A stretch of DNA of 64,000 bases, taken from an uncultured Bacilli bacterium. Lineage in GTDB: Bacteria > Bacillota_I > Bacilli_A > RF39 > UBA660. Position 1 is the stretch's first letter, and each line of letters starts with the position of its first letter. The position numbers were made by a program, and so were the translations under genes. The notes below the pieces were generated by a model, which made no database searches, had not been told where the DNA came from, and saw only the letters and a program-made list of their open reading frames with translations. Positions 22,630 to 60,754 of the stretch are shown in pieces. The stretch is taken from positions 3,547 to 67,546 of the forward strand of contig CAKPHZ010000001.1 of the NCBI GenBank assembly GCA_934162265.1, written 5' to 3'.

Positions 22630-23565
22630 ATGCAACAAACTACAATTACTCTAAAGGTATGTGAAGAAACCAAGAGACAAATGATTGATTTTTTTACTGA
22701 TTTAAAAAGAGAAAAAACTCCTCCTTATGCTGTATTTCAAGCAAAAGATGGAGATACTGTTGTTACTTTATATGAATCAGGTAAAGCTGTTTTTCAGGGA
22801 AAAGATGCAGATTTAGCTTCAGCATTCTGGATTGAAACAGAAAAAATTCATAACGGTTCTGCGGTTACTACAGACAGCAGGGAAAAAGAGAAAAAAAAGG
22901 TGGAAAAAATTCTTCCTATTCGTATTAATTCGATTGGTTCAGATGAGGTTGGAACGGGAGATTATTTTGGTCCTATCGTTGTCACTGCTTCTTATGTTAG
23001 TAAAGAAAATATTGATTTTTTACTTGATTTAAAAGTAAAAGATTCTAAGAAGTTGAGTGATGAACAAATTATTCAAATTGTACCAAAGATAATTCAAAGA
23101 ATTCCTTACCAAACTTTTATTTTAAAAAATAAAGAATATAATCTTCGAAAAAAGGAAAATATTAATATGAATCAAATGAAAGCTATTTTACATAATAAAG
23201 TATTATATGAACTAAAGAGCAAAAATTATCCTTATCAATATATTGTTGTTGATCAGTTTGAACCAGCGGCTAGTTACTATAAACATATTCATGCTTCCAC
23301 GAAAAAAGTAAATGATATTTTCTTTTTAACGAAAGCTGAGGATCAATGTTTATCTGTTGCTTGTTCTTCTTTAATTAGTCGATATATTTTCTTAAAGGAA
23401 ATGAATTCTTTATCTAAAGAAATTGGAATGAATCTACCTAAAGGTGCTGGTCCTATGGTTGACGAGGTGGCAAAAAAAGTTGTAGAAAAATATGGAAAAG
23501 AGAAACTAGATGAGATTGCAAAATTGAATTTTAAAAATACTGATAAAATTTTATCTAATATTTAG
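22630..23565 (+). CDS. rnhC: Ribonuclease HIII
   Basis: N-terminal TBP-like domain and the RNase HII/HIII catalytic motif IGSDEVGTGDYFGPIVV; 311 aa. Confidence 0.85.
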   Translation: MQQTTITLKVCEETKRQMIDFFTDLKREKTPPYAVFQAKDGDTVVTLYESGKAVFQGKDADLASAFWIETEKIHNGSAVTTDSREKEKKKVEKILPIRINSIGSDEVGTGDYFGPIVVTASYVSKENIDFLLDLKVKDSKKLSDEQIIQIVPKIIQRIPYQTFILKNKEYNLRKKENINMNQMKAILHNKVLYELKSKNYPYQYIVVDQFEPAASYYKHIHASTKKVNDIFFLTKAEDQCLSVACSSLISRYIFLKEMNSLSKEIGMNLPKGAGPMVDEVAKKVVEKYGKEKLDEIAKLNFKNTDKILSNI

Positions 23566-23607
23566 TATAAAAAAAAAATACTTACTCATATTATTAATGG
23601 TGATACT

Positions 23608-29352: not shown

Positions 29353-29679
29353 CTTATCACCACACTTTTTGTTTTCTATGATATTTAATAATATTTTTTT
29401 ACTATTCTTAGACCGATACTATTTGTTCATCCATGATAAGCAAATTTATATGATAAATTCTTAGATAAATTCTAAAAATTCTTTTATATTATTATACCTC
29501 TATTTCTCTTTGCTTCTCAATAAGTTAACTAACTTTCTTTCTTTTTTTATTTATAACTATTAGTAAATTTATAGTCGTTTAGAGAATAAATTGCTACGGA
29601 AATGATTATAGATTAGTGTTTTAAAGAAGAAAAAGATAAAATAGCTAGTCGACTAATCTATTCATAACTTTCGGTCCTT

Positions 29680-29796
29680 TTAGCTCGCCTTCGAACTTCA
29701 ACACCTGGAATGCCGATGCGAACGGCTATAACGTCAATCCTTCTGGAATGCTTAATCATTGGGGGTGGACTTCGAATTCGATCGGCGTGCGCCCAG
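29680..29796 (+). repeat. DGR template repeat (TR), 117 bp
   Basis: GC-rich (about 52%) block in an otherwise ~27% GC intergenic region. Aligned without gaps to the reverse complement of 32111-32227, it shows 18 mismatches, and all 18 are adenines in this copy (18 of 26 TR adenines). All 91 non-A positions are identical. The 3' segment tcgatcggcgtgcgcccag is identical in both copies, like an initiation-of-mutagenic-homing (IMH) region. The TR is in frame with the VR and carries 8 AAY codons. Confidence 0.88.
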
Positions 29797-30084
29797 ATTC
29801 CTACTATAATTAGTAAATTACTAATACCACCGAGAATAATTGATCATGGTTGATTATGAGAAGAAGTAATAGCCTAGTTTTAGGCTATAATCTATATATA
29901 GATTGGAAACAAGATTAGTCAGTAAGGAAATAATCCTTAAGTATATAATATAGACGTAATAAAACGGTAGTTTTTGTTACTATTGCTATATTGAAGTTTT
30001 ATCTATTAAATGATAGATAGAACTTTTTCTTATTAAATTTTGTTCTATTCATTGAATAAAATTAATAGGAAAAGAAAGGAAAAA

Positions 30085-30495
30085 ATGACTTTAAAAGATG
30101 AATATCAAAAATTGAAACAAAAATATCCTAAAAAAATCATTCTTATTCAATCTGGAACCTTTTATGTTACTTTCTTTCAAGATGCTGAAATTCTTAATTA
30201 TCTTTTTTCTTATCAAATCCATGACGATAAAGTTGGCTTTCCTATTAAAATGAAAGATAAAATTTTATTTAATTTAAGAAATGAGAAGCTCAATTATTTA
30301 GTGCTAGATAAAGAAAAACGAGAGTTTTCTTTTGATGATAATGATATTTTCTCGTATGAGGAGATATTAAAAATTTCTTCTCAATATGCAAAACAATCTA
30401 GTGATACGCAAGAGCTGTTGGATAGAATAAAGTCTTTGATTGAGATTAATCCTAACTATTATGTTAAAATAAAGGAATTTATTGATGAACTCTAA
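30085..30495 (+). CDS. DGR accessory protein with MutS N-terminal mismatch-binding domain (MutS-I)-like fold (MSL-type)
   Basis: The segment TLKDEYQKLKQKYPKKIILIQSGTFYVTFFQDAE aligns with the MutS domain I consensus [35 protein letters not shown]. The mismatch-intercalating Phe is conserved (GTFY) but the Glu is replaced by Val. The start at 30085 has a GAAAGGA RBS. Confidence 0.6.
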   Translation: MTLKDEYQKLKQKYPKKIILIQSGTFYVTFFQDAEILNYLFSYQIHDDKVGFPIKMKDKILFNLRNEKLNYLVLDKEKREFSFDDNDIFSYEEILKISSQYAKQSSDTQELLDRIKSLIEINPNYYVKIKEFIDEL

Positions 30496-30823
30496 TTTTC
30501 AGTTATTACAAAAAACAGAGAAAACTATTCAATACATTCAAAAATTTTTACAAAATTATCCTAAAAAGGAATATATTTTAAAAGGAAATATAGAAAAAAA
30601 TACTTATTCGTTAATTGAATTGATTTTTTCGTATCAAATTAATCATACTGAACGTATTCGTCAAAAATACTTAAAGGATTTTTTAATTCAGTTATCTATG
30701 TTAAATTTTTATATGGAAATTAGTTTTAATAAAAAATATATTAGTACAAGGCAATATGAAGTGATTGGTAAATTTTTAATTGAAATTAGAAAAATTACTT
30801 ACGGAATTTTAAAAAGTGAATAA
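30485..30823 (+). CDS. avd: Accessory variability determinant (Avd)-like four-helix-bundle protein
   Basis: About 112-aa helical protein immediately upstream of and overlapping the RT start. Its size, position and YP-K/R pattern fit Avd (a 23S rRNA intervening-sequence-protein-like four-helix bundle). Confidence 0.6.
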   Translation: MNSNFQLLQKTEKTIQYIQKFLQNYPKKEYILKGNIEKNTYSLIELIFSYQINHTERIRQKYLKDFLIQLSMLNFYMEISFNKKYISTRQYEVIGKFLIEIRKITYGILKSE

Positions 30824-31939
30824 TCAATTCAATTACCAAACAATTCTAACGATTAAAAATTTACAAATTATTTATCATCAAATAAAATTAAATAGTAGAC
30901 ATAAAGAAAAATTTTTAAATTATGAATTATTTTTAACCTCAAATTTATTTACTATTTTTTTTATTTTAAAATCAAAAAAATATCATCACTCTTGCTATAA
31001 TATTTTCTTAATTGTTGATCCAAAATTTAGAATTATTATGAGTGAAAATATTAATGATAAAATTGTTAATCATTTTATTAGTCAATACTTGTTATTCCCA
31101 ACGTTAGAACCAAAAATGATTCCTATGAGTGTTGCTACTAGAAGAGGTAAAGGGACAGATTTAGGCATTCGTTATATAAAAAAATATATTCATTCATTAA
31201 AAGAAAAATATGATACGTTTTTTTTTTGAAATGTGATGTTCATAAATTTTTTTATTCTATTGATCATCAATGTTTAATTCATAAATTAGAAAAAATTTAT
31301 GAAAATAAAGATACAATGACCCTATTAACAGAAATTATTAATAGTACTAATCAGCCGTATATTAATCAAAAAATCAATTTAGAAATTGAAAAAATTAAAA
31401 AAAATATTTTAGCTTCTCACTCTTCTTTGAAAGAAAAAGAAAGAAAGATAAAAGAATTAAAACGATTACCACGATATGAATCAGGAAAAGGATTACCAAT
31501 AGGAAATATGAGTAGCCAAATATTAGCAACCTTTTATTTAAATGATATTGATCATTATATCAAAGAAAAATTACATATTAAGTATTATGTGCGCTACATG
31601 GATGATTTTATTTTATTTCACCCTAATAAAGAATATTTAAAGTTTTGCTTAAAAGAAATTGATGCTAAATTAAAAGAAATAAAATTACATTTAAATAATA
31701 AAACACAATTAGCAGACATACATCAAGGATTTAATTTTTTAGGATATCGCTTTTTATTAAAAGAAAAAAAATTAATTACAAAAATAAATAAAAAAACAAA
31801 AAGAAAAATATATCATCGTTGTAAAAATAAATCTCTTAAAGAAAAACAAAGTATATTAAAAAACTATAAGGGAGTATTTAAATATGCAGATGTTAATGGA
31901 TATATTTTTCATTTACAATTTCAAAAAAAGAAAAAATAA
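30816..31939 (+). CDS. DGR reverse transcriptase (reading frame interrupted by a -1 frame change at the T10 tract 31218-31227)
   Basis: RT motifs appear in order across two ORFs: motif 1 IVDPKFRII...DKIVNHFI and the SVATRRGKG region (30816-31229 frame), then motif 2 CDVHKFFYSIDHQ, motif 3 GLPIGNMSSQILATFYLNDID (the DGR-specific IGxxxSQ), YVRYMDDFILF (YxDD) and FNFLGYRF (31226-31939 frame). An eleventh T, or a -1 ribosomal slip on T TTT TTT next to TGA, fuses the two frames. Confidence 0.85.
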
Positions 31940-32033
31940 TTTTTCAATTATTTGGTATATGTAGTAGGAATATCAACCAAAAATTGCCCACAAAATGATG
32001 AGTCATTTTGTGGGTTTTCTTTCTTTTCGATGA

Positions 32034-34283
32034 TTATTTTGAAATAATATAAGGGTTTGCTGCCGTTCCATTTCCTTCGCTTATCAGAGAATCAGCATTC
32101 AGATTGATAACTGGGCGCACGCCGATCGAAGACGAAGGCCACCCCCAAGGAAAAAGCAGTCCAGAAGGATTGACGTAAGAGCCGAACGCAACGGCAGACC
32201 AGGTGAGGAAGCGCGAAGGCGAGCTAAGCCAATAGTAAGCTCCTGTATATAAATAATATTCTTTATTGTCATACCCTTGCTTTCCTCCGGCGTATGCTAC
32301 TTCATCTGCTGTTAATAATCCTACTGGATAGGTTAATTCTCCGTTACCTAATGTTGAAGTACTAGATACAGTAAATTGATCCACTTTTCTTGGACATTTA
32401 TAAGAAGGTGTTTTATTTGTTACATTTCTTTGATAAGAACCATAATAGGTAGTGCTATTTAAAGTAAAGCCATCTCCTGAAGCAATGCTTCTATCATTGC
32501 AAAATATATTATCAGTTAAATATTTTGAATATCCCTTATCCTGAATATTGGTTTTATACCAACTATCTATTTTTTGTTTAATAGCGCTATCATATTCATC
32601 TGTATAGGTGGATTCATAGCTTTTTGAAAGATAAGAATGATATGCTTTTACTTTTACTTGGCTTATATTTACGTAAGAAGCTATTTCTACTAATGTTGTA
32701 CAAGTTCCTGTTTTAGAGGTACTAAAACATGTGTATTTATAATTGCTACTATTACTTCCCCAAACACTTTCTAGTGTTCCACTTGTTATATTCCCCGATA
32801 ATGATAATTTTTTTGTTGAATCATTTGTCGTATAACTATCCGAAAAATAATAAGTATTATTGGCATTTATATTATTGTAATTTAAATTTGTTGCTGTTGT
32901 GTGTTGTAATGTTTTGGATAACCCATATTTATAACCTACCATCGCTGAATCATACGGGTCAGAATTAAAGGTTGAATTTCCGATGGTTACATTACCACCT
33001 GTATCTGATGTAGAAGTTCCAGAATATATCATTCTTATGCTCCCATCTCCGTTAATTCTAACAATTCTCCATATATATCCTGCAAATGATACATAATTAT
33101 TTAACACTCTACCTCTATAATAATAACTTTCTCCATAGTCATCATCTGCAACATATAAGGCACTACTAGATAAATTTACTATCTCTTTTGTTGAACTATA
33201 TTGATCTACTTTCGTTGCTTTATATGTTGTTGTCGTTCCTGATGTAGAAGTAGTCGCTGAGTAGATTACATACATTGTACTACAACTTCCAGTATCTGTT
33301 CTAACACAGGTGTAATACTTTTTATCACTTGTAGATAAATTATCTGTCATGTTTGTTCTAGTTGTATTAGAAATACTATATTGTCCTGTATTTGCATTGA
33401 ATGTATAATTTGTACCAAAATATATTTTATCTGTAGTACTTACTAAACTACTTCCTGTTAAATTAAAAGCATTTGTTTGTGTATATGTAATCATTGGAGA
33501 TGTTTCGTTAAAATTAGCTACTCTTGTTTTGATTTCTTCTTTTGCTTGTTCTACACTACTAGCATATTTGTCTGTTATTAATAAACAATCACTTAGTTTG
33601 GTGATATTATTATTTGTACAATAATCACTATCAAAATCACCAAATGTAGCTGTTGTTCCTGTTCCGTTGCTTGAATAAAATTCTACTAATCCTCCATATA
33701 CTCCTGTATCTGTTTTTATTTGATCTTTTCCATTTTCACTAATCCATAAAGCGATATAATATTCTTTTGTTTCATTTGGGGAAATTGAAAAGTTTTTTTC
33801 TAAATTAGATTTTTCCATACCATTTGTTTTATATTCACTTTTTCTAGTTGTTGCATTATCAAGTAATTCCCATTTTAAATTTTGATAAATGTTATTTGCT
33901 CCACTTGCAACAAGAGTGATGGAACCAGTTAACTTTAAGGTTGCTTTTCCGGTATTTTTAAGTGTTATTTTATAAACTTCACAGGAAACATTCTGATTAG
34001 AATCTACACAACTTCCAACCCCACCTGTTCCTTTTAAAGCATTTTTCAATGCATCATCCAACAGAGGAACTAACTTGGACGTCCCATTACTAGATGATGG
34101 AGTAACTTTATTTACTATTAAACTTACATTAGAAGTTGACATGTTTCCAGCAAATGTATTTGTATTTTTTCCTTCTGTATATAAATAAGCATATGTAGCA
34201 CTTGTCATTATTATAGTATAAATTATTATGCTAAAAGTGAATATTAAAATCTTTCTTTTCGATATTTTTTTTAAACTTCTCAT
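32034..34283 (-). CDS. DGR target (variable) protein: signal-anchored, Ser/Thr/Asn-rich surface protein with a C-terminal VR-encoded ligand-binding region (probable C-type-lectin/FGE-like fold)
   Basis: 749 aa. The N-terminus has a signal or transmembrane anchor (MRSLKKISKRKILIFTFSIIIYTIIMTSATYA), and the protein has many N-x-S/T sites. The C-terminus ...SSPSRFLTWSAVAFGSYVNPSGLLFPWGWPSSSIGVRPV is encoded by the VR, followed by 26 further residues. Confidence 0.8.
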   Translation of the reverse strand: MRSLKKISKRKILIFTFSIIIYTIIMTSATYAYLYTEGKNTNTFAGNMSTSNVSLIVNKVTPSSSNGTSKLVPLLDDALKNALKGTGGVGSCVDSNQNVSCEVYKITLKNTGKATLKLTGSITLVASGANNIYQNLKWELLDNATTRKSEYKTNGMEKSNLEKNFSISPNETKEYYIALWISENGKDQIKTDTGVYGGLVEFYSSNGTGTTATFGDFDSDYCTNNNITKLSDCLLITDKYASSVEQAKEEIKTRVANFNETSPMITYTQTNAFNLTGSSLVSTTDKIYFGTNYTFNANTGQYSISNTTRTNMTDNLSTSDKKYYTCVRTDTGSCSTMYVIYSATTSTSGTTTTYKATKVDQYSSTKEIVNLSSSALYVADDDYGESYYYRGRVLNNYVSFAGYIWRIVRINGDGSIRMIYSGTSTSDTGGNVTIGNSTFNSDPYDSAMVGYKYGLSKTLQHTTATNLNYNNINANNTYYFSDSYTTNDSTKKLSLSGNITSGTLESVWGSNSSNYKYTCFSTSKTGTCTTLVEIASYVNISQVKVKAYHSYLSKSYESTYTDEYDSAIKQKIDSWYKTNIQDKGYSKYLTDNIFCNDRSIASGDGFTLNSTTYYGSYQRNVTNKTPSYKCPRKVDQFTVSSTSTLGNGELTYPVGLLTADEVAYAGGKQGYDNKEYYLYTGAYYWLSSPSRFLTWSAVAFGSYVNPSGLLFPWGWPSSSIGVRPVINLNADSLISEGNGTAANPYIISK
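32111..32227 (-). repeat. DGR variable repeat (VR), 117 bp, at the 3' end of the target gene
   Basis: Reverse complement of the TR, with 18 substitutions located exclusively at TR adenine positions. It encodes residues SSPSRFLTWSAVAFGSYVNPSGLLFPWGWPSSSIGVRP. Relative to the TR there are 13 changed codons (for example N to R/L/S/F/Y, H to P, T to P). Confidence 0.88.
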
Positions 34284-55979: not shown

Positions 55980-56154
55980 CTTACCACCTACTTTAAGTAA
56001 AGTATATAATAAAAAGATATTCTTTTCAATGGAAAGGTTACTATTCACAGCTGAATAATAAAAAATATACACAGATTATGAGAAATTAAGTAAAAATAGC
56101 TCATAGTCTTTTTATAATGCAAAATATTTGATACAATAAAAAAAAGAAGGATAC

Positions 56155-56847
56155 GTGATGAAAATGGCAGAAATAAGTTTATCAAAATTACAAAAAAGAG
56201 TGACAAAATTAGAAAAAGATAATGCCGTGTTAAGAGATTTGTTAGAAGAAAGAAAACAAAAGCAATATAATGCAGAAAAACAATTAGAGTATTATAAAAA
56301 AAATCTAGAAAAAATAGTAAATACTGCTGTAAAAAAAGTAACTGAAGAACTAATGAAAGAAGTAAATAAATTAAAAGAAGAAAACGAACATTTAAAGAGA
56401 ATATTAAATCATGATAGTAGTAATAGTGGAATACCAACAAGCAGGACAAAAATTGGAGAAGCAAAAAGAGTTCCTAACTCTAGAAAAAAGAGTGAGCTGA
56501 AGAAAGGTGGACAACCAGGACATAAAAAACATAAATTAGAAAAGTTTGCAGATGATGAAATAACAGATACATATACATACGAAATAAAGAAACCAAAATG
56601 CAAAGAATGTGGAGGAAAATTAGAATTAATTGGAAAAAGATGTAAAGATGAATTTGATATCGAAATAAGATTAGTCAAGAGAAGAAATGAATTTTGTGAA
56701 TATAAATGTAGTTGCTGTGATAAAGTGATAAAAGTACCAATACCAGATAGATTAAAAGAGGAAAATCAATATGGAAGTAATGCTCAAGCATTAGCAATAT
56801 CACTAGTAAATGAAGGATATGTTTCATTTAGAAGAACAAGAGATTAA
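56155..56847 (+). CDS. IS66-family transposase, N-terminal part (leucine zipper plus zinc finger)
   Basis: Heptad-Leu coiled coil followed by the zinc-finger motif KCKECGGKL...CSCCDKV. Confidence 0.75.
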   Translation: MMKMAEISLSKLQKRVTKLEKDNAVLRDLLEERKQKQYNAEKQLEYYKKNLEKIVNTAVKKVTEELMKEVNKLKEENEHLKRILNHDSSNSGIPTSRTKIGEAKRVPNSRKKSELKKGGQPGHKKHKLEKFADDEITDTYTYEIKKPKCKECGGKLELIGKRCKDEFDIEIRLVKRRNEFCEYKCSCCDKVIKVPIPDRLKEENQYGSNAQALAISLVNEGYVSFRRTRD

Positions 56848-56870
56848 TAAGTGGTTTTACTGGTGGAGAA

Positions 56871-57722
56871 ATGGTAATGAGTGAAGGCTTCATATCAAAG
56901 TTACAAAAAAGATGTTACGACAAACTAGAAAATTTTGATAATGAAATTCATAAGAAAATACTAAGTCAAAGTATTTTGCATTGGGATGATACCGCTATAA
57001 GTATAAATGGAAAACAATCATGCTTAAGATTTTATGGAAATGAGAAAATAAAATATTACAAGGCACACGAACAAAAGAATAAAGCTGGAATTGATGAAGA
57101 TGGTATATTAAAGTTTTTATCAAAAGATACAGTTGTGATGCATGATCATAATTTAGTTAATTATAATGAGGATTATGATTTCACAAATGTAGAGTGTTGT
57201 GTTCATCTAATTAGAGATTTGAAAGAACTAAATGATTGTTTTCCAAGAGAATGGATTAATAAACTTATATCATTACTAGTAAATACTAATAATTTGAGAA
57301 AAGAATATATTAACAAAAATATATTACAATTCGATTATGAAGTATCAGACAATGTAATAAGAGAATATGATAAAATAATCGAAGAAGCTCAAAAAGTAAA
57401 TTCTAATGATTATAATGAGTATTACAGTAAAGATGAAAGTAGACTAATAAAAAGACTAATTAGATTTAAGGAAAATTACTTATTATGGGTTCTTAGATTT
57501 GATATTCCATTTTCTAATAATCTCAGTGAGAGAAGTTTAAGAAGTAGCAAAACGAAAATGAAGGTATCTGGACAGTTTTCAAATATTAAAAATGCAGAAT
57601 ATCTTGCTAGAATAAAATCGTATATTGAGACTTGTAAAAGTAATGATATAAATCCTCACGAAGCATTGATTAAACTTATAGAAGACAATCCATATACTTT
57701 AAGAGATATGAAAATAAACTAA
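56871..57722 (+). CDS. IS66-family transposase, C-terminal catalytic part
   Basis: CCVHLIRDLKEL matches the IS66 CWAHARRKF motif. It is in a different reading frame from the N-terminal part, in both IS copies. Confidence 0.75.
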   Translation: MVMSEGFISKLQKRCYDKLENFDNEIHKKILSQSILHWDDTAISINGKQSCLRFYGNEKIKYYKAHEQKNKAGIDEDGILKFLSKDTVVMHDHNLVNYNEDYDFTNVECCVHLIRDLKELNDCFPREWINKLISLLVNTNNLRKEYINKNILQFDYEVSDNVIREYDKIIEEAQKVNSNDYNEYYSKDESRLIKRLIRFKENYLLWVLRFDIPFSNNLSERSLRSSKTKMKVSGQFSNIKNAEYLARIKSYIETCKSNDINPHEALIKLIEDNPYTLRDMKIN

Positions 57723-57774
57723 GAAATCTTAGTTTATTTTGCGTGCAAGTTATTATTCAGCTGTGAATAGTAAC

Positions 57775-58917: not shown

Positions 58918-59117
58918 GTTATACCTCCTAAAGTGATTATTAGTATAACATATTTCTTATTAAGTTACTAGGTTAAATTAAGAATTTGGATCTCTGTCAG
59001 TTACTATTCACAGCTGAATAATAAAAAATATACACAGATTATGAGAAATTAAGTAAAAATAGCTCATAGTCTTTTTATAATGCAAAATATTTGATACAAT
59101 AAAAAAAAGAAGGATAC

Positions 59118-59810
59118 GTGATGAAAATGGCAGAAATAAGTTTATCAAAATTACAAAAAAGAGTGACAAAATTAGAAAAAGATAATGCCGTGTTAAGAGA
59201 TTTGTTAGAAGAAAGAAAACAAAAGCAATATAATGCAGAAAAACAATTAGAGTATTATAAAAAAAATCTAGAAAAAATAGTAAATACTGCTGTAAAAAAA
59301 GTAACTGAAGAACTAATGAAAGAAGTAAATAAATTAAAAGAAGAAAACGAACATTTAAAGAGAATATTAAATCATGATAGTAGTAATAGTGGAATACCAA
59401 CAAGCAGGACAAAAATTGGAGAAGCAAAAAGAGTTCCTAACTCTAGAAAAAAGAGTGAGCTGAAGAAAGGTGGACAACCAGGACATAAAAAACATAAATT
59501 AGAAAAGTTTGCAGATGATGAAATAACAGATACATATACATACGAAATAAAGAAACCAAAATGCAAAGAATGTGGAGGAAAATTAGAATTAATTGGAAAA
59601 AGATGTAAAGATGAATTTGATATCGAAATAAGATTAGTCAAGAGAAGAAATGAATTTTGTGAATATAAATGTAGTTGCTGTGATAAAGTGATAAAAGTAC
59701 CAATACCAGATAGATTAAAAGAGGAAAATCAATATGGAAGTAATGCTCAAGCATTAGCAATATCACTAGTAAATGAAGGATATGTTTCATTTAGAAGAAC
59801 AAGAGATTAA
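59118..59810 (+). CDS. IS66-family transposase, N-terminal part (copy 2)
   Basis: Identical to 56155-56847. Confidence 0.75.
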   Translation: MMKMAEISLSKLQKRVTKLEKDNAVLRDLLEERKQKQYNAEKQLEYYKKNLEKIVNTAVKKVTEELMKEVNKLKEENEHLKRILNHDSSNSGIPTSRTKIGEAKRVPNSRKKSELKKGGQPGHKKHKLEKFADDEITDTYTYEIKKPKCKECGGKLELIGKRCKDEFDIEIRLVKRRNEFCEYKCSCCDKVIKVPIPDRLKEENQYGSNAQALAISLVNEGYVSFRRTRD

Positions 59811-59833
59811 TAAGTGGTTTTACTGGTGGAGAA

Positions 59834-60685
59834 ATGGTAATGAGTGAAGGCTTCATATCAAAGTTACAAAAAAGATGTTACGACAAACTAGAAAATTTTG
59901 ATAATGAAATTCATAAGAAAATACTAAGTCAAAGTATTTTGCATTGGGATGATACCGCTATAAGTATAAATGGAAAACAATCATGCTTAAGATTTTATGG
60001 AAATGAGAAAATAAAATATTACAAGGCACACGAACAAAAGAATAAAGCTGGAATTGATGAAGATGGTATATTAAAGTTTTTATCAAAAGATACAGTTGTG
60101 ATGCATGATCATAATTTAGTTAATTATAATGAGGATTATGATTTCACAAATGTAGAGTGTTGTGTTCATCTAATTAGAGATTTGAAAGAACTAAATGATT
60201 GTTTTCCAAGAGAATGGATTAATAAACTTATATCATTACTAGTAAATACTAATAATTTGAGAAAAGAATATATTAACAAAAATATATTACAATTCGATTA
60301 TGAAGTATCAGACAATGTAATAAGAGAATATGATAAAATAATCGAAGAAGCTCAAAAAGTAAATTCTAATGATTATAATGAGTATTACAGTAAAGATGAA
60401 AGTAGACTAATAAAAAGACTAATTAGATTTAAGGAAAATTACTTATTATGGGTTCTTAGATTTGATATTCCATTTTCTAATAATCTCAGTGAGAGAAGTT
60501 TAAGAAGTAGCAAAACGAAAATGAAGGTATCTGGACAGTTTTCAAATATTAAAAATGCAGAATATCTTGCTAGAATAAAATCGTATATTGAGACTTGTAA
60601 AAGTAATGATATAAATCCTCACGAAGCATTGATTAAACTTATAGAAGACAATCCATATACTTTAAGAGATATGAAAATAAACTAA
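59834..60685 (+). CDS. IS66-family transposase, C-terminal part (copy 2)
   Basis: Identical to 56871-57722. Confidence 0.75.
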   Translation: MVMSEGFISKLQKRCYDKLENFDNEIHKKILSQSILHWDDTAISINGKQSCLRFYGNEKIKYYKAHEQKNKAGIDEDGILKFLSKDTVVMHDHNLVNYNEDYDFTNVECCVHLIRDLKELNDCFPREWINKLISLLVNTNNLRKEYINKNILQFDYEVSDNVIREYDKIIEEAQKVNSNDYNEYYSKDESRLIKRLIRFKENYLLWVLRFDIPFSNNLSERSLRSSKTKMKVSGQFSNIKNAEYLARIKSYIETCKSNDINPHEALIKLIEDNPYTLRDMKIN

Positions 60686-60754
60686 GAAATCTTAGTTTAT
60701 TTTGCGTGCAAGTTATTATTCAGCTGTGAATAGTAACATGGAAAGAGTATCTTT

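Follow-up and report, generated by a model that had tools for sequence, protein, structure and literature searches.

Canonical diversity-generating retroelements (DGRs) with Avd and MutS-like (Msl) accessory genes are represented by those of Bordetella phage BPP-1, Legionella, and Bacteroides (Bfr, Bth, and Bun), and by "architecture D" of Wu et al. (2018, PMC5758913). Msl is a described DGR accessory class, and its combination with Avd a described architecture (PMC5758913). The element considered here lies in a 64,000-nt stretch of contig CAKPHZ010000001.1, from an uncultured Bacilli bacterium (the whole stretch is referred to below as the window). It shares with these systems adenine-specific differences between a template repeat (TR) and a variable repeat (VR), a GC-rich 3' boundary resembling the initiation of mutagenic homing (IMH) site, the bAvd and Msl genes, a reverse transcriptase (RT) with an IGxxxSQ motif 4 and YMDD, and a C-terminal VR (PMC5758913). 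It differs from them in having a target gene convergent to the RT operon, a target protein without a recognisable family, and a fixed frameshift in the RT gene, at a run of ten T residues (T10). A lineage fixed for this frameshift is still diversifying its VRs, and the full-length RT is probably made by recoding at the tract, with slippage of RNA polymerase tentatively put forward as the main route.

Bacterial RNA polymerase slips efficiently on runs of nine or more A or T (PMC5009743), with single-nucleotide insertions predominating and a frequency that grows exponentially with run length (PMC5009743, PMC5574713). Such insertions make up 80% of transcription insertions and are predominant in A/T runs (PMC5574713). 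In Citrobacter rodentium tssM1, a fixed frameshift at an A11 run beside a stop codon is rescued by transcriptional slippage (PMC4256274). This gene, Shigella mxiE/spa, and Thermus thermophilus dnaX (a run of nine) resemble the present one in having an intragenic A/T run of at least 9 nt beside a stop, in that one additional RNA nucleotide restores the frame and the interrupted allele is the fixed wild type, and in lacking ribosomal stimulators (PMC4256274, PMC5009743). The differences are that the gene here is a DGR RT and that slippage is deduced from its sequence; in contrast to TssM1, nothing suggests a role of its own for the truncated 137-aa product. The poly(A)-tract genes of Buchnera and Blochmannia, rescued by polymerase infidelity, are also similar in their AT-rich genomes (here 26.8% GC), their conserved A/T-tract frameshifts, and the otherwise intact state of the genes (PMC5009743, PMC5574713). 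The host here is however a free-living gut bacterium of the class Bacilli rather than a degenerate endosymbiont, long tracts are depleted in the window, the RT is the only broken gene seen, and ongoing VR diversification provides an independent functional read-out.

Two further kinds of system are comparable in part. Programmed -1 frameshifting, as in dnaX, IS3-family transposases, and the phage tail-chaperone G/GT genes, involves an in-frame X_XXY_YYZ heptamer like the one found here, and a shifted product which here too would be catalytically complete and sub-stoichiometric; the present site has no stimulatory structure or Shine-Dalgarno sequence, and its heptamer lies within a 10-nt homopolymer that is itself an RNA polymerase slippage site. 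Contingency loci of Neisseria, Haemophilus, and Campylobacter have coding homopolymers that are polymorphic among strains, as this one is (T9/T10/T12), but no allele of ON length was found here, and the length is invariant in the lineage that shows the phenotype. No report was found in the literature of a DGR RT expressed via frameshifting, slippage, or phase variation. In Wu et al. (2018), frameshifts come up solely in connection with TR/VR indels, and according to a 2024 study of gut Bacteroides DGRs the signals and regulation of mutagenic retrohoming await discovery (bioRxiv 10.1101/2024.11.15.621889). The locus would thus appear to join a known retroelement and a known recoding mechanism in a previously undescribed combination.

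A reverse transcriptase gene split at a T10 tract

The RT gene consists of two open reading frames (ORFs) which meet at the tract:

30816-31229, + strand: RT ORF1, 137 codons in frame 0, with the fingers and RT motifs 1-2a, ending in ...KYDTFFF and then TGA
31218-31227, + strand: T10 tract, the proposed recoding site, containing the in-frame slippery heptamer T_TTT_TTT and followed by a TGA stop
31227-31229, + strand: TGA stop of ORF1, which abuts the tract and overlaps the TTG at 31226-31228, the first ORF2-frame codon after it
31226-31939, + strand: RT ORF2, 237 codons in the -1 frame, open from 31214, with a Pfam RVT_1 match

Divided into ORF1 codons, the context is ...gat acg ttt ttt ttt tga aat gtg..., and the letters from 31210 to 31235 are atgatacg-TTTTTTTTTT-gaaatgtg. 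ORF1 alone has no Pfam match; it aligns from end to end with the first 137 residues of intact homologs of ~370 aa. ORF2 begins at motif 3/A (KCDVHKFFYSIDH), which bears the first catalytic Asp, and continues through a motif 4 with the DGR-type IGNMSSQ, YMDD, motifs 6-7, and the thumb. Its RVT_1 match (2.4e-14) covers profile positions 71-205 of 205. The original prediction had described this split from the letters of the stretch, as a T10 followed by TGA with the two ORFs in the 0 and -1 frames, and both the coordinates and the alignment bear it out; its motif numbering was slightly off, with ORF2 actually starting at motif 3/A. It had also expected an intact RT of about 375 aa from one extra T. 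With T11 the product would have 374 aa, be colinear with the homologs, and align ungapped at the junction with 17 of them (FFFLKCDV vs. consensus FYVLKCDI); removal of two T residues (T8) would give a 373-aa RT.

The tract is the sole T10 within the window. Given the base composition, 4.4 runs of T10 or longer would be expected if bases were independent and identically distributed, or 7.4 under a first-order Markov model; the window has one. The occurrence of a T10 is by itself not improbable by chance; it is the location within the coding sequence of the palm domain, and the conservation from strain to strain, that go beyond chance. The remaining genes of the window are long and intact, so the assembly is not generally ridden with indels. 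TGA is the stop of five of the 45 long ORFs, which indicates that the standard code applies. An alternative code with TGA as a sense codon was rejected for that reason and because the long ORFs are intact under table 11; were the TGA read through in frame 0, a TAA would be reached after 17 codons.

Tract length among relatives

To collect contigs of the same species-level lineage, exact matches to the split proteins were sought. The resulting 56 distinct contigs, including the window, come from Hadza SPAdes assemblies, MEGAHIT assemblies, three other scaffold sets, and Logan. ORF1 is open and of the same length in all of them. The tract is T10 in 45, T9 in nine, and T12 in two, and none has T8, T11, or T14 in the assembly consensus. 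Strains with T10 include some that are 1-7% diverged and have different flanking haplotypes; one T10 contig, L002 (an NCBI metagenome-assembled genome, MAG, of an uncultured Bacilli), has flanking genes that are 4% diverged and a priA that is 7-10% diverged. Both T12 contigs (L096 and L097, 583 and 545 nt, from independent samples) have a third RT haplotype, with seven single-nucleotide polymorphisms in 460 nt. L096 turns into unrelated sequence 28 nt past the tract and is probably chimeric. The lineage was found only in human-gut data from ENA, NCBI, and Logan; a scan of JGI metagenomes for the junction with variable T length gave no matches.

Protein collections were likewise without an in-frame form. 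The fused RT has 2,893 homologs among 5.8 billion protein clusters, nearly all of ~370 aa, the best full-length match being 69% identical; no intact RT above that identity is found among these clusters, and the sole cluster more than 90% identical to the fused RT consists of the split halves. Nineteen in-frame fused proteins constructed from the observed allele pairs with T8, T11, or T14 were all absent from a collection of 15 billion sequences. N-terminal halves as called by gene finders end in FFF, corresponding to T10, on 28 + 28 + 12 + 7 + 3 contigs (78 instances), in FFFEM (T9) on 11 + 5, and in FFFFEM (T12) on two, and there is no fused form.

Outside the species, the split disappears. 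Of RTs in fetched loci of other species, 45/45 are unsplit at this site (one has a frameshift elsewhere, and a few match only in part). The idea of a family-wide conserved frameshift was rejected on this basis, and the comparison of homologous DGR RTs suggested in the original prediction, as a check for a conserved frameshift or T-tract, thus yielded none. As far as these sequences go, the split is confined to one species-level lineage. At the position of the tract, homologs encode F-Y-V-L as TTT TAT GTT TTG, with the Tyr invariant in 25 of them; changes of Tyr to Phe and Val to Phe would create a T11, from which loss of one T would give T10. Two of the homologous loci are irregular in other ways. 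In L038 (another species, 1690-1730) the RT has a frameshift at a different, A-rich site, and L035 (OZ007025.1, a HiFi-assembled MAG) matches RT residues 147-366 only and may represent an N-terminally degraded RT.

Diversification in the intact, T10-fixed lineage

The related contigs fall into an intact lineage, defined by msl of 136 aa, avd of 112 aa, and RT of 137 + 237 aa, and a set of decayed ones considered below. In the intact lineage the tract is T10 in 40 of 40 contigs (five short ones were assigned by RT allele). Of 20 VR alleles among related contigs, 18 belong to this lineage. Its 25 TR/VR pairs have 5-20 mismatches at TR adenines; 21 pairs have no mismatch at any other base, and the remaining four have one or two. 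There are six TR alleles, distinguished from one another by non-A sites, and at these sites each VR agrees with its own TR; information has therefore passed from TR to VR since the TR alleles diverged.

The most direct evidence comes from pairs of contigs from different samples that have no differences in the 1,900-nt cassette and none in 2,056 nt of the target gene outside the VR. Their 110-nt VRs differ at 7 positions (L002/L120), 11 (L002/L121), 14 (L081/L085), and 6 (L120/L121). All of these differences are at TR-adenine sites, and all of the contigs are T10. They show diversification to have been very recent in T10 strains. Retrohoming therefore continues in strains whose RT is frameshifted. 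It is well supported by these comparisons that the frameshift is fixed and compatible with ongoing DGR activity. T10 is common to the intact and decayed lineages, so it is ancestral to both, with retrohoming having continued since; RT must then be produced despite the frameshift.

The RT itself has no other stops or indels in the 40 intact-lineage contigs and keeps all family-invariant residues. Seventeen sites are polymorphic, eight synonymous and nine non-synonymous (p = 0.07 vs. neutrality), a pattern that is suggestive of constraint. Three contigs with 10-N scaffold gaps and spurious differences (L089, L114, and L115) were excluded from these counts.

Decayed sub-lineages

Fourteen other contigs (L091-L095, L098-L101, L106, L108, and L129-L131) have the same DGR at successive stages of decay. 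In these, msl is split or truncated to 75 aa, avd is shortened or damaged in most, and the RT mostly has either a 12-nt in-frame (4-aa) deletion or a C-terminal truncation near an A8 tract at 31764. Their VRs are frozen, with one allele in seven contigs and another in five, across samples, and have 3-4 non-A mismatches to their own TRs, which have drifted away from them. Between the two frozen alleles (VR9 and VR10) there are seven differences, four of which fall at non-A sites, as in ordinary drift. The tract is T9 in nine of these contigs and T10 in five, a difference from the intact lineage with a Fisher p of 3.8e-7, phylogeny not being corrected for.

Divergence is comparable (~1%) where the decayed lineages have gained lesions in msl, avd, and RT together with the tract change. 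Across these assemblies, then, the live element has an invariant tract and an RT without other lesion, and in the dead one the tract and genes drift. A fixed T10 in a non-functional element, named in the original prediction as an outcome that would count against a functional frameshift, was seen only in decayed sub-lineages, the main lineage having a fixed T10 together with a functional element.

Proposed recoding at the tract and its alternatives

Taking RNA-level and translation-level recoding together, the full-length RT is probably made in this way, and we infer that it comes from the cis gene, with rescue at one of these levels rather than in the DNA. Within this, the specific proposal that the T10 frameshift is a real, fixed, and functional state of the RT, relieved mainly by RNA polymerase slippage, is put forward tentatively. 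The site has the sequence characters of a programmed transcriptional-slippage site: its A/T run lies at the frame junction and, at 10 nt, exceeds the 9-nt threshold (PMC5009743); the commonest slippage product, with one added nucleotide (U11), would restore the frame to give the 374-aa protein colinear with homologs; and the out-of-frame tract is conserved where the product appears active, in 40/40 diversifying contigs. A U10 in the mRNA is also longer than the RNA:DNA hybrid within RNA polymerase (~9 bp). Of the three options in the original prediction, programmed frameshifting or transcriptional slippage is the best supported, by ongoing VR diversification in T10-fixed strains, with slippage as its presumed mechanism.

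In the proposed mechanism, 374-aa RT would be made in only a fraction of expression events, by recoding at T10. With the RNA:DNA hybrid wholly rU:dA, the nascent RNA could realign backwards and an extra U be added, and ...DTFFF-LKCDV... would be read from the U11 transcript without a break. Slippage of the ribosome by -1 on U_UUU_UUU beside the UGA would give the identical protein and may contribute. RT and bAvd, with Msl, would then act on TR RNA to produce adenine-mutagenised cDNA, which would take the place of the VR in the convergent target gene (749 aa). In effect the tract would be a built-in attenuator, holding RT well below Avd and Msl and keeping retrohoming infrequent.

Ribosomal frameshifting as the main route, ranked second to polymerase slippage, would involve a tRNA-Phe slip on U_UUU_UUU, or a P-site tRNA-Phe paused at the UGA, followed by UUG-AAA-UGU... 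to give the same 374-aa RT. The heptamer is a perfect X_XXY_YYZ in the correct frame and abuts the stop, the product is colinear with homologs, and only tract lengths of 3n+1 fit this route, as with T10 in all 40 contigs of the active lineage and T9 only in decayed ones. However, the link between T9 and decay goes back to one or two events, and a U run of 10 nt is expected to make RNA polymerase slip anyway (PMC5009743, PMC5574713). There is also no GGAGG-like Shine-Dalgarno stimulator upstream and no hairpin or pseudoknot downstream, folds of 31228-31290, 31228-31330, and 31180-31290 being no more stable than shuffled sequences (z = 0.28, -0.92, and 0.21), which leaves the adjacent stop codon as the sole candidate stimulator. 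The lack of a downstream stimulatory structure favors polymerase over ribosomal slippage, and ribosomal frameshifting is considered unlikely to be the main source. Phase variation, raised in the original prediction as a switch operating by slipped-strand mispairing, would have T10 as OFF, with VRs diversified in rare T11 (ON) cells whose descendants return to T10. Long A/T homopolymers are hypermutable, minority ON cells would be hidden in consensus assemblies, and the part of this claim that stands is that tract length does vary in nature (T9, T10, and T12), reaching T12 implying either passage through T11 or a 2-nt slip. But no T11 or T8 consensus occurs in the 56 contigs and no in-frame protein in the collections, whereas known contingency loci have strains of both ON and OFF length. 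The diversifying lineage has T10 throughout despite at least 17 separate VR changes, so that each excursion would presumably have had to return to exactly T10 and never go on to T12; and RNA polymerase slippage on T10 would already supply RT with no change in the DNA. Phase variation is accordingly not favored, and seems quite unlikely.

If the cis RT were instead a dead pseudogene, VR diversity would have to come from an intact RT in trans or from a time before the frameshift. Frameshifted genes are usually pseudogenes, and some sub-lineages of this cassette are clearly decaying. Past activity is nevertheless excluded by T10 strains that are identical over ~4 kb with VRs differing at 6-14 TR-A sites, and by the way in which VRs follow their own TR alleles. 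No further RT lesion has appeared in 40 intact-lineage contigs, while sister lineages at ~1% divergence gained lesions in msl, avd, and RT and a tract change. No second RT or VR is present within the window, and a low-sensitivity search of a related MAG returned one RT locus only; a dead RT thus seems very unlikely. Still less probable is an RT that works as two polypeptides (137 + 237 aa), with ORF2 translated by termination-reinitiation at the overlapping TTGA. The ORF1 stop does overlap an ORF2-frame TTG (T-TTG-A) and both halves are conserved, but a TTG inside a U run with no ribosome-binding site is a poor start, and all 45 other-species RTs are undivided here. In a high-confidence model of a 69%-identical intact homolog (predicted local distance difference test, pLDDT, 92.5), residues 136-142 (YVLKCDV), including the catalytic Asp141, form a single beta-strand, and the break would interrupt it between residues 137 and 138. 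Sequencing or assembly error, with a true tract of T11, was also suggested in the original prediction. Errors are common in homopolymers, and coverage is low for many of the contigs; against this, the 45 independent contigs with T10 were assembled in different studies by different means (SPAdes, MEGAHIT, and Logan) and include different flanking haplotypes, split halves were called on 78 (T10), 16 (T9), and 2 (T12) contig instances and a fused form never, no in-frame version exists in the protein collections, and other window genes are intact. This explanation was rejected as next to impossible.

Several points weigh against recoding by polymerase slippage or limit how far it can be taken. The signal of purifying selection on the RT is not significant (p = 0.07). 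Within the intact lineage cassettes differ by only 0-1.2%, so conservation of T10 spans a limited evolutionary time, and the lineages compared are not phylogenetically independent. The T12 allele is in a third haplotype, on contigs too short to judge DGR activity. Absence of an in-frame allele is judged from the homology search and the 19 exact look-ups, and 22 of the 37 members of the protein cluster were not seen, each being on at most two contigs; the search for a second RT covered the 64-kb window. Slippage behavior is known from the RNA polymerases of other bacteria rather than that of this host, and transcriptional and ribosomal slippage yield the same protein, which makes them inseparable from sequence.

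It is somewhat probable that the rate of DGR hypermutation is set by recoding and that T10 is selectively maintained, RT arising only from those transcripts or translation events in which slippage occurs, and the frameshift being a built-in rheostat and not a lesion. If so, this DGR would be the first known to be under recoding control and would explain concretely, in a single case, how retrohoming stays rare, and the tract could couple mutagenesis to conditions that alter polymerase or ribosome fidelity. The variation seen in nature points to the 10-nt tract within the RT gene as a single control point acting in cis. There are also practical consequences: pipelines that demand an intact RT ORF, or that call split RTs pseudogenes, will miss or misclassify active DGRs, and an interrupted RT could offer a simple means of tuning engineered DGR mutagenesis systems.

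The rest of the retroelement

Apart from the split RT, the locus is a complete DGR, with a TR, a MutS-like gene, bAvd, RT, and a convergent target gene with a C-terminal VR. TR, msl, bAvd, and both halves of the RT are all on the + strand:

29680-29796, + strand: template repeat (TR), sense on the + strand, as the RT is; inverted repeat with 32111-32227
29869-29888, + strand: small hairpin, ATAGCCTAGTTTTAGGCTAT, with an 8-bp stem, ~70 nt downstream of TR, between TR and msl
30040-30495, + strand: MutS-like (Msl) accessory gene, an ORF from TTG 30040; gene callers start it at ATG 30085, giving 136 aa
30482-30823, + strand: bAvd accessory variability determinant, Pfam bAvd 6e-12, above the gathering cut-off
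31986-32015, both strands: bidirectional intrinsic terminator, between the convergent RT operon and target gene
32034-34283, - strand: DGR target gene, 749 aa, with a hydrophobic N-terminal segment
32111-32227, - strand: variable repeat (VR), at the C-terminus of the target gene

Features by which DGRs are recognised are mostly present, namely TR/VR differences confined to adenines, an RT next to the TR, accessory genes, and VR turnover; the RT ORF, split at T10, is not intact. TR and VR form a 117-nt inverted repeat, 85% complementary. All 18 mismatches between them are at TR adenines (18 of 26 A residues), with none at the 91 non-A positions. The two share a GC-rich 3' end, GGCGTGCGCCCAG, beyond which their sequences diverge; this is an IMH*/IMH-like boundary. 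The ATAGCCTAGTTTTAGGCTAT hairpin, which turned up as a terminator-like stem on the - strand, may be a structural element of the DGR RNA. Three terminator-like sites were found vs. 0.3 expected, and the terminator between the RT operon and the target gene has 12-13-bp stems with T tails on both strands.

Msl has a Pfam MutS_I match (1.7e-7) and weak NCBIfam matches to MutS N-terminal models. The bAvd gene matches NCBIfam DivGenRetAVD at 4.6e-13, under the equivalog cut-off, and bAvd is directly upstream of the RT in homologous loci as well. The RT is identified by IGNMSSQ and YMDD, its RVT_1 match, and thousands of ~370-aa homologs; NCBIfam has no curated DGR-RT model, and the NCBIfam RT matches all score under their cut-offs. 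The 749-aa target protein, including the VR-bearing C-terminal 188 aa, has no sequence match in Pfam, NCBIfam, or PDB.

Neighborhood and other observations

The msl-avd-RT cassette (30040-31939) is ~1% diverged between the window and L002, and its flanks 4-7% (priA 151/2184, target 130/2250, and efp 22/558), which suggests a recent exchange or sweep of the cassette among strains. L002 (2866-3477), L109, L119-L122, and L132-L134 also have a gene for a 203-aa thymidine kinase between priA and the DGR which is absent from the window haplotype (29353-29680).

The only A10 run in the window (23569-23578) is intergenic, just past the stop of an ORF at 22630-23565. Farther from the DGR, there are two exact 1,738-bp copies of an IS66-family element (56037-57774 and 59000-60737), separated by 2,963 bp. 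Each encodes its transposase in two adjacent ORFs in different frames, one of 230 aa (56155-56847) and one of 283 aa with a DDE_Tnp_IS66 domain (56871-57722), with no homopolymer where the two ORFs meet.

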